Assembly: GCA_001915925.1 (NCBI GenBank)
Contig: MNRL01000019.1
Span: 12,448 to 76,447 of the forward strand
Length of the DNA stretch: 64,000 nucleotides
From: Clostridium sp. CAG:354_28_25
GTDB taxonomy: Bacteria > Bacillota > Clostridia > TANB77 > CAG-508
Reading direction: 5' to 3'
Below are positions 21-63,990 of this stretch, in pieces. Within the stretch, counting starts at the first letter, position 1; the number at the start of each line of letters is the position of its first letter. Under the pieces are notes generated by a model, which made no database searches, was not told where the DNA came from, and saw only the letters and a list, made by a program, of their open reading frames with translations. Made by a program: the position numbers and the translations under genes.

Positions 21-82
21 CAATAGGGATTAGAGGGACGTTCTTAAAATCCCGGTTTTACCGGGATTTTAAGAATAGTCCT
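21..82. repeat. Composite head-to-head copy of the GGGATTT/GGGGACGTTC/AAATCCC palindromic repeat family (AGGGATTAGAGGGACGTTCTTAAAATCCCGG + TTTTA + CCGGGATTTTAAGAATAGTCC); perfect 15-bp inverted repeat at 41-55/61-75
   Basis: Direct reading; matches the unit seen at 27268, 43631, 45028 and elsewhere. Confidence 0.7.
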
Positions 83-181
83 TTTTTAGTGCAAACATGC
101 AAAAGACTGGAGAAGACTTAGCAATTACTTTACTTATAAGCAAATAAATGGTATACTTTTAAGCGATAAAAGGAGAAAAAA

Positions 182-1171
182 ATGAAAGATATAATAATAT
201 TAGGAATAGAATCAAGTTGTGATGAAACATCTGTAGCAGTTGTAAAAAATGGTAGAGAAGTTTTATCAAATGTAATAAATACACAAATAAGTATTCACGA
301 ATTATATGGAGGAGTTGTGCCAGAAATTGCATCCAGAAATCATGTAGAGAATATTTCACCTGTAATGAAAGAAGCACTAAAAGAAGCAAACGTAAAAATC
401 GATGATGTAGATGGAATCGCATGTACATATGGACCAGGCTTAGTAGGAGCACTACTAGTAGGAGTGTCTTATGCAAAAGCATTAAGTTATGCAGCTAATA
501 AACCACTTATTGGTGTAAATCATATCCAAGGGCATATTGCAGCAAACTATATAACATATAAAGACTTAGAACCACCATTTTTAACATTACTAATATCAGG
601 AGGAAATACACAACTTGTTTTAGTAAAAGATTATACAAAATTTGAAATATTAGGAAAAACTAGAGATGATGCAGTAGGAGAAGCTTTTGATAAAATAGCA
701 AGGGTTATAGGCTTAGGATATCCTGGTGGACCTAAAATGGATAAACTAGCACAAGAAGGAACTCCAAATATAGTTTTACCTAAAGTTCATATAGATGGTT
801 TAGATTTTAGCTTTAGTGGATTGAAAACAGCAATCATTAATTTACATCATAAAACACCTGATATAAACAAAGCAGACTTAGCAGCAAGCTTCGAAAAAGA
901 TGTTGCTGAAATCTTGTTAGAAAATACAAAAAAAGCTGTAAAGGAGACAAATATAAATAAAATAGCATTAGCAGGAGGTGTTTCTGCCAATAGCTATATT
1001 AGAAAAGCATTTAAAGAATTAGAAGAGAAAGAAGATATAAAAGTATATTATCCAGAACTTAAATTGTGTACAGACAATGCAGCAATGATAGCATCAGCTG
1101 GATATTATAATTTCTTAAAAGGTAACTTCTCAGATTTAAAATTAAATGCTGTACCAAATTTAAAATTATAA
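182..1171 (+). CDS. tsaD: tRNA N6-adenosine threonylcarbamoyltransferase TsaD (Kae1/YgjD family)
   Basis: 329 aa, [31 protein letters not shown] motifs; RBS AAAGGAG upstream; extended -10 TGGTATACT at ~149-157. Confidence 0.9.
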
Positions 1172-1192
1172 TAATTAGAAAGAGGATGAAAA

Positions 1193-1882
1193 ATGTCAAT
1201 CTATGCAATTTCGGACTTGCATTTATCATTTAATGCAGATAAACCAATGGATATATTTGGGTGGCAAGATTATGAAAATAAGATAAAAGAAGATTGGGAA
1301 AGTAAAGTAAAAGAAGATGATTTAGTAATTTTAGGTGGAGATTTTTCTTGGTCAATGCAACTTCAGGATACATTCAAAGATTTTGAATTTATTCATAATT
1401 TGCCTGGAAAAAAACTATTACTAAAAGGTAACCACGATTATTGGTGGGGAACTTTAACAAGTATGAGAAAATATATAAATAGTATTGGTTTTACAGATAT
1501 AGATTTTATATATAATAATAGCTATGAATTTGAAGATAAAATAATTTGTGGAACTAGAGGATGGAATTTTAGTGGTATTCAAGAAGAAGACGAAAAGATA
1601 TACAATAGGGAAAAACAAAGGCTAAAATTATCTTTAGAAGATGGTGTAAACAGATTTGGAAAAGATAAAGATATTATAGCGTGCTTACATTATCCACCAT
1701 TAAAGATAGACGAAATCTCAGATTTTGTAAGAATAATGGAAGAATATAATGTAAAGAAATGTATTTATGGACATTTACATGGTCCTGCGCATAAATTTGT
1801 AGTAGAAAAAAATCTTGATGGAATAGAATATATTATGACAAGTTGTGATTATACAAATTTTAAATTGCTAAAAATTTATTAA
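1193..1882 (+). CDS. Calcineurin-like metallophosphoesterase
   Basis: ISDLHLS...GGDF...GNHDYW motifs. Confidence 0.7.
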   Translation: MSIYAISDLHLSFNADKPMDIFGWQDYENKIKEDWESKVKEDDLVILGGDFSWSMQLQDTFKDFEFIHNLPGKKLLLKGNHDYWWGTLTSMRKYINSIGFTDIDFIYNNSYEFEDKIICGTRGWNFSGIQEEDEKIYNREKQRLKLSLEDGVNRFGKDKDIIACLHYPPLKIDEISDFVRIMEEYNVKKCIYGHLHGPAHKFVVEKNLDGIEYIMTSCDYTNFKLLKIY

Positions 1883-61174: not shown

Positions 61175-61360
61175 AATTCATACCTCCAACTAAGTTTATA
61201 ATTCTAAAACTTTAACATGGTTCACATAAAATGTCAATGCTTGTATAAAAAATATATAAATAAATACTAAAAATTATTTGACAAAAATAAAACTATAATA
61301 GATAATATAATAAGTTAAGTACGACAGATAAAACACGAAGAAACTAAGGAGGAAATATTA

Positions 61361-63931
61361 ATGTATATATTTAATAAAATTACGGTAAATCCACAATTAC
61401 CAAAAAGAGTAGGAGAATTATTAGATATTGCAAACAATTTATGGTGGTCTTGGAATTCAGAATTTTTAAGATTATTTAAAGAAATTGATTCTGACTTATG
61501 GGAAACGGTTGGAAAAAATCCAGTTAAATTTTTAAAACTAGTTTCTCAAGATAAATTAGAAGACATAGCAAAGGATGAAGAGTTTTTAGCTAAATATGAT
61601 GAAGTTGTAAATCACTTTAATTCATACATGCAAACAAAAGAAACATGGTTTTCTAAAAATTATCCTAATAATGCAAACGATTTAATTGCATATTTTTCAG
61701 CTGAATATGGTATAGATGAGATAATACCAATATACTCAGGTGGATTGGGAATACTTTCTGGAGACCATTTAAAATCTGCAAGCGATTTAGGCTTACCTTT
61801 TGTTGCTGTAGGGTTATTATATAAAAATGGTTATTTTAATCAAAAAATAGATGGATATGGAACACAAAAAACAGAATATACTAATATAGATTTAGATAAT
61901 TTACCAATTTTACCAGTAAAAGATGAAAATGGTGAAGATTTAATAATAGATGTAGATTTCCCGGACAGAAAATTATATTTAAAAATATGGAAAATTGTTG
62001 TGGGAAGAATTTCTCTATTTCTAATGGATTCAGATATAGATAAAAATATAGCAGAAGATAGAGTTGTTACATTAAGACTATATGGTGGAGATCAAGAAAT
62101 GAGAATAAGACAAGAAATTGTCTTAGGAATGGCAGGTATAAAGTTATTAAAACGTTTAGGATTAAACCCAAGTGTATACCATATGAATGAAGGTCACTCT
62201 GCATTCTTAACATTAGAAGTAATAAAAGATGCAATGGAGGAAAAACAAGTATCATTCGAAGTTGCGAAATCAATGTGTTCAGCAAAGACAGTATTCACAA
62301 CACATACACCAGTTCCAGCTGGAAATGATATATTCCCAATAGAATTAATGGATAAATATTTTTCTAATTTCTGGCCAAAACTTGGAATCTCTCGTGAAGA
62401 TTTCTTAAGATTAGGTATGAAAAATAGTCAAGGAATAGAGCAAGGATTTAATATGGGAATGCTTGCATTAAGAATAGCTGGTAAAAAGAATGGTGTAAGT
62501 AAGTTACATGGGGCAGTATCAAGAAGATTATTCTCTGATGTATGGCCAAATATTGCACCAGATGAATCACCAATAGAATATGTAACAAATGGAATTCATA
62601 CATGTTCATGGCTTGCACCATCAATGAAAAAATTATTTAACCAATATTTAAAACCTTATTGGCAAGATAATATTCAAGATGACGAAACATGGAATGATAT
62701 TAAAAATATTCCAAATAAAGAATTATGGGATACACATACAGATAGAAAGAAAAAATTATTTGCTTTAGTAAAAAACAATATAACAACTAGATTAAAATCT
62801 AGTGGATATAATTACGAAGAAATAAATGAAATCGTTTCTAAATTAAATCCAAATGCGCTAACAATTGGTTTTGCAAGAAGATTTGCAACATATAAAAGAG
62901 CAACATTAATATTTAGAGATTTAGAAAGATTAACACAATTATTAAACAATCCAGAAAGACCAGTTCAATTAATTTTTGCTGGTAAAGCACATCCGGCAGA
63001 TAAAGAAGGTCAAGACTTAATAAAATATATTCATGAAGTTTCTATGAAACCTCAATTTAAAGGAAAGATATTCTTATTAGAAAATTACAATATAGCAATG
63101 TCAAGATATCTAATAAGTGGTGTTGATGTATGGCTTAATAATCCAAGAAGACCAATGGAAGCTTCTGGCACAAGTGGTCAAAAAGCATCTGTAAATGGCG
63201 TAATTAACTTTAGTGTATTAGATGGCTGGTGGGCAGAAGGATATAACCAAAAAAATGGTTGGACAATAGGAGACAATACAGAATATCAATCTTATGAAGA
63301 ACAAGATATTGCTGATAGCGAAAGCTTGTATAATACTTTAGAAAATAAAATTATTCCATTATACTATGAAAATAAAAAAGAAGATGGAGTATCTGACAAA
63401 TGGATGGAAATGTTTAAAAACTCAATAATTTCTACAGGTGGAAAATATTCAACTTCAAGAATGGTAATAGATTATACAAGAGATTATTACATGGAACTTG
63501 CTAATTTATCTAAAAATCATTATCAAAACCTAGATGAAGTAATTGATTTTACTAACTGGAAGAAGAATCTTTATGCAAGTTGGAAAGATATAAAGATTAC
63601 TCAAAATAATAACTTGGATAATATAACGATAGATGCAGGCAACCAAATAGAAGTTCATTGTATTGTAAATTTACCAGAAAATATAGATTGTAATTCTATC
63701 AGAACAGAAGTATATTATGGTAAAATATTAGAAAACGGAATAATGGAGCAAATTCAGACTGTTCCAATGAATTTGATAGAACAAGATGATGAAAATAGAA
63801 CATATAAATATTCTGCTAAGATAGAATTAAAAACAGGCGGTAACTATGGTTACACATTTAGAGTTATGCCACAAACAGCTATGATGCTAGATACAGCTAA
63901 TTTAGACTTAATACAATGGGTAATACGATAG
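61361..63931 (+). CDS. glgP: Alpha-glucan (glycogen/maltodextrin) phosphorylase, GT35 with N-terminal DUF3417
   Basis: NLWWSWN N-terminal motif; PLP-lysine region; 856 aa. Confidence 0.85.
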   Translation: MYIFNKITVNPQLPKRVGELLDIANNLWWSWNSEFLRLFKEIDSDLWETVGKNPVKFLKLVSQDKLEDIAKDEEFLAKYDEVVNHFNSYMQTKETWFSKNYPNNANDLIAYFSAEYGIDEIIPIYSGGLGILSGDHLKSASDLGLPFVAVGLLYKNGYFNQKIDGYGTQKTEYTNIDLDNLPILPVKDENGEDLIIDVDFPDRKLYLKIWKIVVGRISLFLMDSDIDKNIAEDRVVTLRLYGGDQEMRIRQEIVLGMAGIKLLKRLGLNPSVYHMNEGHSAFLTLEVIKDAMEEKQVSFEVAKSMCSAKTVFTTHTPVPAGNDIFPIELMDKYFSNFWPKLGISREDFLRLGMKNSQGIEQGFNMGMLALRIAGKKNGVSKLHGAVSRRLFSDVWPNIAPDESPIEYVTNGIHTCSWLAPSMKKLFNQYLKPYWQDNIQDDETWNDIKNIPNKELWDTHTDRKKKLFALVKNNITTRLKSSGYNYEEINEIVSKLNPNALTIGFARRFATYKRATLIFRDLERLTQLLNNPERPVQLIFAGKAHPADKEGQDLIKYIHEVSMKPQFKGKIFLLENYNIAMSRYLISGVDVWLNNPRRPMEASGTSGQKASVNGVINFSVLDGWWAEGYNQKNGWTIGDNTEYQSYEEQDIADSESLYNTLENKIIPLYYENKKEDGVSDKWMEMFKNSIISTGGKYSTSRMVIDYTRDYYMELANLSKNHYQNLDEVIDFTNWKKNLYASWKDIKITQNNNLDNITIDAGNQIEVHCIVNLPENIDCNSIRTEVYYGKILENGIMEQIQTVPMNLIEQDDENRTYKYSAKIELKTGGNYGYTFRVMPQTAMMLDTANLDLIQWVIR

Positions 63932-63943
63932 AATTAACAGGCA

Positions 63944-63990
63944 TTAGGGGACGTTCCAAGAGAGGGATATGGGGACGTTCTGGAGTGCGG
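63944..63990. repeat. Double-core copy ATTAGGGGACGTTCCAAGAGAGGGATATGGGGACGTTCTGGAGTGCGGAACTTTTT located 13 nt after the glgP stop
   Basis: Direct reading; ends in a small hairpin plus T-run. Confidence 0.75.

Follow-up and report, generated by a model that had tools for sequence, protein, structure and literature searches.

A REP/REPIN-like family of hairpin repeats in uncultured gut Clostridia and its link to a predicted RAYT/TIRYT-type transposase

The intergenic regions of Clostridium sp. CAG:354_28_25 harbor a family of short hairpin repeats, which we examined in a 64,000-nucleotide stretch of its genome (hereafter the window; contig MNRL01000019.1, positions 12,448 to 76,447) and in related genomes, where the same repeats flank a transposase gene. 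The window has a GC content of 26-32%, its genes lie mainly on the + strand, and proteins identical to its own are encoded on contigs of up to 1.70-1.85 Mb. Among the matches listed, its nearest representatives are L028 (CAKNPW01) and L078/L017 (JAHAKD01), which are 91-93% identical. The basic repeat unit folds into a hairpin of 27-31 nt, in which the arms GGGATT/AATCCC enclose a conserved loop containing GGGACGTTCC, and 171 full units gave the consensus aaTA-GGGATT-(TG/TA/GA/AG or 3 nt)-GGGACGTTC-CTTA(A)-AATCCC-T-n-TTT, the right flank being T-rich. An initial annotation of the window had listed ten repeat loci, and when we checked the copies by coordinate the motif was present at all ten. 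Counted on both strands against 100 dinucleotide shuffles, the 9-mer core GGGACGTTC has 11 exact matches in the 64 kb, compared with 0.01 expected, and 15 matches if up to one mismatch is allowed; an 18-mer proposed in the initial annotation finds four matches with up to two mismatches, against none expected. Non-coding DNA makes up 11.4% of the window and holds 15 of the 24 GGGAC/GTCCC pentamers. A hidden Markov model (HMM) trained on copies from other genomes and run with nhmmer recovered every listed locus and nothing convincing within genes. The copies are unevenly spaced, with none at 83-25268, which corrects the initial annotation.

At the left end of the window, a full unit comprising arm, core and arm' (TAGGGATTAGAGGGACGTTCTTAAAATCCCGG, 24..55, + strand, 25.3 bits with nhmmer) is followed by a degenerate inverted partial unit (CCGGGATTTTAAGAATAGTCCT, 60..82, - strand), which forms a long palindrome together with 36-55; as single-stranded DNA (ssDNA), positions 20-84 fold with -19.2 kcal/mol (z -7.3). 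A half unit made up of an arm and the core variant GGGACGGTCC without a right arm (25269..25289, +) stands in tandem before a full unit with core variant GGGACGGTC (25290..25320, +, 20.8 bits) that is identical in eight strains. The canonical full unit TAGGGATTGGGGGACGTTCCTTAAATCCCTA occupies 27268..27298 (+, 36.9 bits; ssDNA hairpin -7.7 kcal/mol, z -3.2). Positions 28394..28417 (+), originally described as a degenerate copy, do contain both arms; the core is absent, and an adjoining hairpin of a second type (B/B', 28437..28470, no strand assigned) had been overlooked. This hairpin carries the inner-type cores GGGGACACTC...GAATGTCCC and is terminator-like on the - strand, on which it lies directly after the gene 28478..29284 and is followed by a T run. 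Further along, a unit without one arm (reverse complement TCGGGATTTAGGGACGTTCCTTTT, 30355..30378, -, 21.3 bits) sits directly upstream of the next gene's Shine-Dalgarno sequence, and full units are found downstream of dnaJ (core GGGACGTTG, 43631..43661, +, 26.5 bits) and, in inverse orientation, at 45028..45058 (-, 29.8 bits; fold -6.9 kcal/mol, z -4.0). An armless extra core (TTTTGGGACGTTCCC, 52756..52770, +), which has no counterpart at this site in L078, precedes a full unit at 52774..52805 (+, 34.6 bits). The largest arrangement is a REPIN-like composite at 56991..57130 (no strand assigned; ssDNA fold -35.1 kcal/mol, z -8.1), whose parts are a core without arms (56991-57001), a + unit in which the right arm is degenerate (57001-57031), a spacer that contains a small hairpin of its own, a lone arm (57082-57090) and a full unit in inverse orientation (57098-57130, -). 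Finally, HMM matches at the right end of the window comprise an armless core (TTAGGGGACGTTCC, 63944..63957, +) and an arm (GGGATA) plus core without a right arm (63963..63981, +). The architectures reported in the initial annotation thus all stand, namely both orientations, tandem or half units at 25269, 52756 and 63944, a head-to-head palindrome at 21-82 and a composite of about 140 bp at 56991-57130. The perfect 8-9 bp arms that it ascribed to the units are a feature of some copies; in general, only the 6-bp GGGATT/AATCCC is near-invariant and one to three outer pairs vary (TA, CG, CA/TG).

The same forms, that is singlets, tandem or half units and inverted doublets with nested second units, recur in 880 kb of repeat-bearing loci from relatives (86% coding), on which our statistics of position, orientation and open reading frames (ORFs) are based. 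Close inverted pairs are arranged as + then - in 38 cases and as - then + in seven. The former are composites of roughly 90-165 bp in which an outer unit A and an inner unit B are followed by a variable spacer and by B' and A', and the window composite at 56991-57130 is a somewhat decayed example of this A-B-spacer-B'-A' order. Unit B reads GGGATT-nn-GGGACACTCC or GGGACAGTCC, with the core GGGGACAC/GGGGACAG. Folded as ssDNA, single units reach -7 to -8 kcal/mol (z -3 to -4) around a loop of about 15 nt, and composites reach -35 to -50 kcal/mol (z -7 to -14). In three composites, about 200 bp are inserted between the inverted units (L033 984-1301, L101 1131-1419 and L061 5940-6255); the L033 and L101 inserts are related to each other in reverse orientation and may therefore be a nested small element or an RNA gene. 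Other dispersed palindromic families containing GGGGAC, such as GGGGACGTCCCCaaagaaacccggaacca, occur at L107 1700-1760, 2730-2890 and 4240-4290 and at L097 851-939.

Many copies read TA-GGGATT...AATCCC-TA and the composites possess terminal inverted repeats, features that would also suit conventional miniature inverted-repeat transposable elements (MITEs) mobilized by a DDE transposase of the IS630/Tc1-like kind, which duplicates a TA target, as for Correia elements. However, no target-site duplication was found at the units. The bases beyond the arms are inverted and non-independent (TA..TA, CA..TG, TC..GA) rather than direct, and the outer arm pairs TA, CG and CA/TG covary within the palindrome (chi-square p 2e-5 to 5e-4). 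Moreover, among the 903 ORFs of the repeat-bearing loci there is neither an insertion sequence with these ends nor a multi-copy transposase family. We rejected the TA-duplicating MITE on account of the inverted, covarying flanks of the units and regard a DDE-driven origin as highly improbable; the Correia, ERIC or RPE-type options of the initial annotation fall for want of a target-site duplication.

To define the host range of the unit, we scanned one genome from each of 185,579 species with the pattern GGGATT-N2-3-GGGACGTTC-N3-5-AATCCC, which matched at least 116 stretches in at least about 35 metagenome-assembled genomes (MAGs). Among the matches listed, every stretch comes from a low-GC gut MAG of an uncultured 'Clostridium sp.' or 'Clostridia bacterium', in agreement with the lineage restriction that the initial annotation had proposed to check. 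The identical GGGATT...AATCCC pattern was present in a single contig out of 2.9 million viral contigs, and a phage origin of the repeats was rejected on this ground. If the density of the window holds genome-wide, a 1.7-Mb genome would contain, by extrapolation, about 400 cores at about 270 loci.

Relative to genes, the units occupy a distinctive position. The 880 kb contain 260 cores, of which 222 are located outside ORFs, another 31 are at most 100 nt from an ORF end and seven are deeper inside; this bears out the earlier description of the repeats as standing outside or at the ends of genes. Units lie a median of 15 nt past a stop codon and 84 nt ahead of a start codon, and are also present in divergent intergenic regions. 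In the window, the TAG of TAGGGATT provides the stop codon of three genes (24171..25271, 26041..27270 and 27329..28396, ending at 25271, 27270 and 28396) at the units beginning at 25269, 27268 and 28394. Approximately eight ORFs in other genomes end within the CTTAA loop of a unit, and some transposase ORFs run into a downstream unit (L096 5424-6266; P0035, P0064 and P0082) and acquire C-terminal tails, for example ..DFKERP, which is encoded by GATTTTAAGGAACGTCCC. Stop codons inside units indicate that the repeats supply gene ends. This extragenic placement bears on the possibility that the units are DNA uptake signals, which the initial annotation also listed, or that they serve some other short signal function across the genome, for instance in segregation or recombination. 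The conserved 9-10 nt core is indeed strongly over-represented and often present as inverted pairs, as are the DNA uptake sequences of Neisseria, but uptake sequences are common in genes, the conserved unit here extends over about 30 nt, has arms, comes with two core types and forms nested composites, and it brackets a transposase gene. We consider an uptake or similar signal barely credible.

The location of the units could alternatively be explained if they were host-selected cis elements, either intercistronic or 3'-end hairpins that stabilize or terminate mRNA or reiterated sites for a host protein (possibly the helix-turn-helix (HTH) domain of the transposase-like protein described below), in which case the link to the transposase would be incidental or domesticated. 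The short distance to stop codons and the T-rich right flank are in line with such a role, as is the orientation of singlets between co-directional genes, 53 of which point with the genes and 22 against them (70% versus 30%; p 4.5e-4). In addition, two hairpins in the region 25200-45100 are terminator-like, unit 45028-45058 and the B/B' hairpin (28440-28468), the latter directly behind a - strand gene, and REPs of E. coli are known to influence the stability of mRNA (PMC3733652). Yet nearly a third of singlets are oppositely oriented and many units stand in inverted doublets, a T tract is missing from most units, which did not score as terminators (including the pieces at 25269, 25290, 27268, 30355 and 43631), some are in divergent intergenic regions, and an Rfam search of the window matched no family to the repeat units. 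Given that only two repeat hairpins were flagged in 25200-45100, and given a loop of about 15 nt, a terminator role was rejected for most units, and the RNA stem-loop considered in the initial annotation is at most a possible side effect.

A comparison of orthologous sites between species and strains revealed that the differences are concentrated in the repeats. The unit at 24-82 has a counterpart at the orthologous site in L028 and is absent from L057, a species 77% identical. The site downstream of dnaJ (43631) is without a unit in three other species (L010, L016 and L039), and its unit is degenerated in L003, a 99%-identical strain; in L016 this site (3150-3420, - strand view) holds an unrelated element with inverted ends of about 26 bp (tttcgggtcgggtctcaaaatgggaa...). 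At site 52756, which is empty in L066, the window has a half unit in addition to the full unit that L078 also possesses, and at site 63944 a single canonical unit in L017 corresponds to the two partial units of the window, neither of which has a complete arm pair. Within the species, two alleles occur at site 27268, distinguished by an indel of 29 bp located between the arm and the core, and the composite at 56991 exists as three alleles that combine two left ends with two unrelated spacers. The cis-element explanation gains from site 27268, at which a unit is also found at the orthologous site in L108, a species only 76% identical, and loses from the general pattern, in which most sites are unconserved between species and restructured between near relatives. 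Taken together with the orientation and terminator data, we judge this explanation improbable.

When the 903 ORFs were clustered, the sole recurrent transposase-like cluster consisted of proteins of 256-280 amino acids. These proteins match the Pfam model Y1_Tnp with 40 bits (cutoff 23) and score 58-68 bits against the NCBIfam model REP_Tyr_transpos (REP-associated tyrosine transposase, RAYT), compared with 17 bits for the IS200 model. The motifs NH[AVT]H and Y-I-H-x-N-P show no variation among 35 homologues, and Y---NP is the signature of class 2 enzymes (TnpA-REP; PMC6006769); a serine motif, YxYSS, follows the tyrosine motif. A search of the Protein Data Bank (PDB) with the single transposase sequence gave no match, whereas a profile search placed 4er8_A first. 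Likewise, Foldseek with an AlphaFold (AF2) model of the transposase (pLDDT 81.7) returned 4er8_A, the structure of TnpA-REP bound to a REP hairpin, as its top match (E 5.6e-7, TM 0.72), followed by the IS608 and ISDra2 TnpA proteins. The last 60 or so residues are helical (helices 209-260 in the model) and contain the conserved stretch ILGIGKNRI. This C-terminus has weak matches to HTH_19, Sigma70_r4, HTH_24, HTH_3 and HTH_23 in up to 11 of the 35 members, and weak PDB profile matches to sigma region 4 and Xre-type HTH domains. By its sequence motifs and the structural model, the gene encodes a Y1 HUH transposase of the RAYT/TIRYT class that is about 256-262 amino acids long and has a C-terminal HTH domain.

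The genes for these proteins are themselves enclosed by the repeat. In L102, a MAG 93% identical to the window, taGGGATTtgGGGACGTTCtttaaAATCCCta lies about 200 bp upstream of the gene and GGGATTttaagGAACGTCCCcaAATCCC immediately after its stop codon, and inverted units also bracket the gene in L096, L120-135 and L153-160. Counting the closest relative and six further lineages, this answers positively the suggestion in the initial annotation that a RAYT- or IS200-like tyrosine transposase might co-occur with the repeat. Bracketed homologues include P0006 (59% identity), P0013, P0035, P0112 (41%) and that of the P0149 species, and the arrangement of L102 recurs in homologues with identities of 59%, 46%, 44% and 41%. 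The core variant is equal on both flanks within a lineage and different between lineages: it is GTTCC in L102/L120-125, L126-129, L132/133, L134/135 and L096, GGTCC in L130 and GTACC in L153-157. In L134/L135 and L130, the bracket takes the form A-B...B'-A'. Because the gene itself lies inside an A(-B)...(B'-)A' bracket, the scattered composites look like derivatives of the cassette that lack the transposase. The ferredoxin and pyruvate:ferredoxin oxidoreductase (POR) neighborhood of the gene is kept across protein identities of 41-100%, and this constancy indicates single-copy, vertical inheritance. A very prevalent relative, reached via the neighboring POR gene, also has an intact, unit-flanked gene; its POR gene shares only 88% identity with the POR gene of the nearest relative to the window. 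The unit pairs 600 bp apart in L041 and L051 were rejected as transposase cassettes, as ordinary genes lie between them.

Several further observations concern this locus. L107 encodes a 35%-identical transposase paralogue flanked by a different, also dispersed, GGGGAC-containing repeat, so that one genome can hold two enzyme/repeat pairs. In L136 (P0026), positions 1-584 contain a truncated transposase gene that retains only the C-terminal 144 amino acids, 92% identical to P0001, with a degenerate unit (tggattttaaggaacgttccaaaatcca) downstream; the system gives the impression of being in decay in this single rare lineage, which is unlikely to be the window's species. The segment comprising unit, transposase gene and small ORF is only 76% identical between L126 (2262-3656) and L102 (47-1425), their transposase proteins being 59% identical, and the adjacent POR gene is 97.8% identical (L126 3760-4732, L102 7026-8000; proteins about 99%); the cassette is thus either a local hot spot of divergence or has been replaced between these lineages. 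In some strains a prophage end encoding a holin and an amidase adjoins the upstream unit (L120-L122 1-2950; L154-L156 6757-8954), and about 35 nt from the 3' end of the ferredoxin gene persist there, suggestive of a phage attachment site next to the transposase cassette. Lastly, a conserved ORF of 101-108 amino acids is found next to the transposase gene (L120 4852-5157, L126 3355-3681, L136 723-1028, L153 5071-5385), outside the inverted pair in L120/L126, inside it in L153-157 and absent in L132/L134; judging by its sequence, its product looks like a putative winged-helix protein.

Overall, we consider it very likely that the repeats are non-autonomous REP/REPIN-like elements of a lineage-specific family moved in trans by the RAYT/TIRYT-type transposase. 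The REP/BIME-type reading of the initial annotation is thereby upheld for a unit that is lineage-restricted, high-copy and, in relatives, placed on both sides of a Y1/HUH transposase gene. By homology with E. coli TnpA-REP and the IS608 and ISDra2 TnpA proteins, the Y1 enzyme would recognize the hairpins in ssDNA, probably in the lagging-strand template, cleave at the hairpin foot and rejoin the ends. Units would in this way be copied or moved to new extragenic sites with no duplication of the target, and selection would preserve only those at sites that tolerate them, chiefly a short way 3' of stop codons. The copies would then decay or rearrange quickly through point mutation, slippage between units and recombination, and host effects, such as a donated stop codon or an occasional terminator-like hairpin, would be secondary.

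A number of observations nonetheless count against this reading, in which mobilization by the enzyme is inferred from homology. We found no clean pair of filled and empty sites within the species, and the strain alleles could be explained by slippage or homologous recombination, meaning that transposition is not proven. By tblastn, there is no transposase gene in the 64-kb window, and the bracket is seen in relatives only. The RAYT score of 58-68 bits falls under the curated cutoff of 80. The 53:22 orientation bias is compatible with action on one replication strand, but transcription fits equally well, and as GC skew tracks gene orientation in the window the two biases are not separable. The units also lack the GT[AG]G foot of REPs and instead have the left-flank consensus A-A-T-A before GGGATT, although REP classes 2.6 and 3 are likewise without this tetranucleotide (PMC6006769). 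In the same study, no REP-like hairpins are reported beside HTH-bearing genes of subclass 2.1. In a more speculative version, which we hold to be unlikely, an HTH-bearing Y1 enzyme of the subclass 2.1/TIRYT kind would keep a true, possibly domesticated, REPIN-like population in a small, streamlined Clostridia genome. The hairpins, with their unusually conserved loop, would then be more than parasites and act as host signals, either as RNA or DNA structures at 3' ends or between cistrons or as sites for the HTH of the enzyme. If true, such a partnership would parallel, in Gram-positive bacteria, the REPIN-RAYT symbiosis of Proteobacteria, but recognition would work differently, through the loop and an HTH in place of a GTAG foot.

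Apart from the repeats, the window contains a 6S/SsrS RNA gene at 33851-34044 (+; RF00013, 102.7 bits), which is its sole Rfam match and is unrelated to the repeats, and no tRNA genes. In the ORF 59692..60645 (-), a degenerate tandem T-rich motif (GTTGTTTTTGTAGC...) occupies 60416-60584 within the coding sequence, and these repeats imply a low-complexity, repetitive protein.

The significance of this system lies in a prevalent, uncultured lineage of human-gut Clostridia with genomes of about 1.7 Mb that carries a well-developed population of hairpin repeats tied to an HTH-bearing enzyme. It offers a compact natural system for the choice of DNA by such enzymes, accounts for many of the intergenic structural differences between strains in metagenome assemblies, and provides, in the unit, a lineage-specific marker sequence. 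For genome annotation, it draws attention to stop codons and C-terminal tails of repeat origin.

Among known systems, the IS200/IS605 elements IS608 and ISDra2 resemble the one described here in the Y1 HUH fold of their transposases, the next-best structural matches, in their hairpin-bearing ends and in the absence of target duplication. They differ in that the gene in the Clostridia is single-copy and syntenic, scores 17 bits with the IS200 model, carries the Y---NP motif, which is not of class 1, and has no tnpB partner. The system also resembles TIRYTs, which constitute subclass 2.1 of TnpAY1 and bear a C-terminal HTH domain (Quentin et al. 2018, PMC6006769). As described by Di Nocera et al. 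2013 (PMC3733652), a TIRtron comprises a longer RAYT-like enzyme between flanking inverted repeats that carry the consensus GGGGWSAS, and in some genomes this terminal inverted repeat (TIR) family is dispersed, in dimers and clusters. Our system shares the longer protein, its C-terminal HTH domain, the dispersal of the flanking repeat in such arrays and, in that repeat, GGGG-A-C; its likeness to subclass 2.1 was judged by the shared features of length, HTH domain and YxYSS. The B cores GGGGACAC/GGGGACAG fit GGGGWSAS (GGGACACTC, 32 copies and GGGACAGTC, 20 copies in the loci), whereas the dominant A core GGGGACGT (200 copies in the loci) misfits it at positions 7-8. Unlike what PMC6006769 reports for subclass 2.1, each flanking repeat here is itself a hairpin unit, and the extrapolated copy number looks high beside the published TIR families, which are described as 'moderately abundant' (PMC3733652).

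Comparison with the REP, BIME and REPIN-RAYT systems was drawn from PMC3116915, PMC3337134 and PMC5581495 and from the structure 4ER8. As in the proteobacterial systems of E. coli and Pseudomonas, the Clostridia possess short, extragenic, high-copy palindromes that occur as singlets and inverted doublets without target duplication, a single-copy, vertically inherited Y1/HUH gene between inverted repeats (a REPtron, here in relatives of the window), an enzyme with HUH and Y---NP motifs whose fold is nearest to 4ER8, and fast turnover of copies at fixed intergenic sites. E. coli TnpA-REP can cut REPs and join them again (PMC6006769), and RAYT proteins of Group 1 also occur in Clostridia (PMC5581495). 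In the literature that we searched, we found no repeat family linked to a RAYT described for Clostridia. To our knowledge, work on REP/REPIN-RAYT systems has been confined almost wholly to Proteobacteria, whereas the host here is a Clostridia genome of 1.7 Mb and 28% GC. Further differences from REPs are a short stem (six invariant and one to three variable pairs) with a large loop that is the most conserved part of the unit, and a second, nested unit type inside doublets; the enzyme is about 100 amino acids longer than RAYTs and ends in the HTH domain. Except for the GT[AG]G foot, the system possesses every defining REP/REPIN-RAYT feature that we tested. It is therefore best read as a new REP/RAYT-type genomic parasite, a kind of element already known rather than a new one, and is notable for its Clostridia host with a small genome, for a conserved loop, for the missing GTAG foot and for an enzyme that bears an HTH domain.

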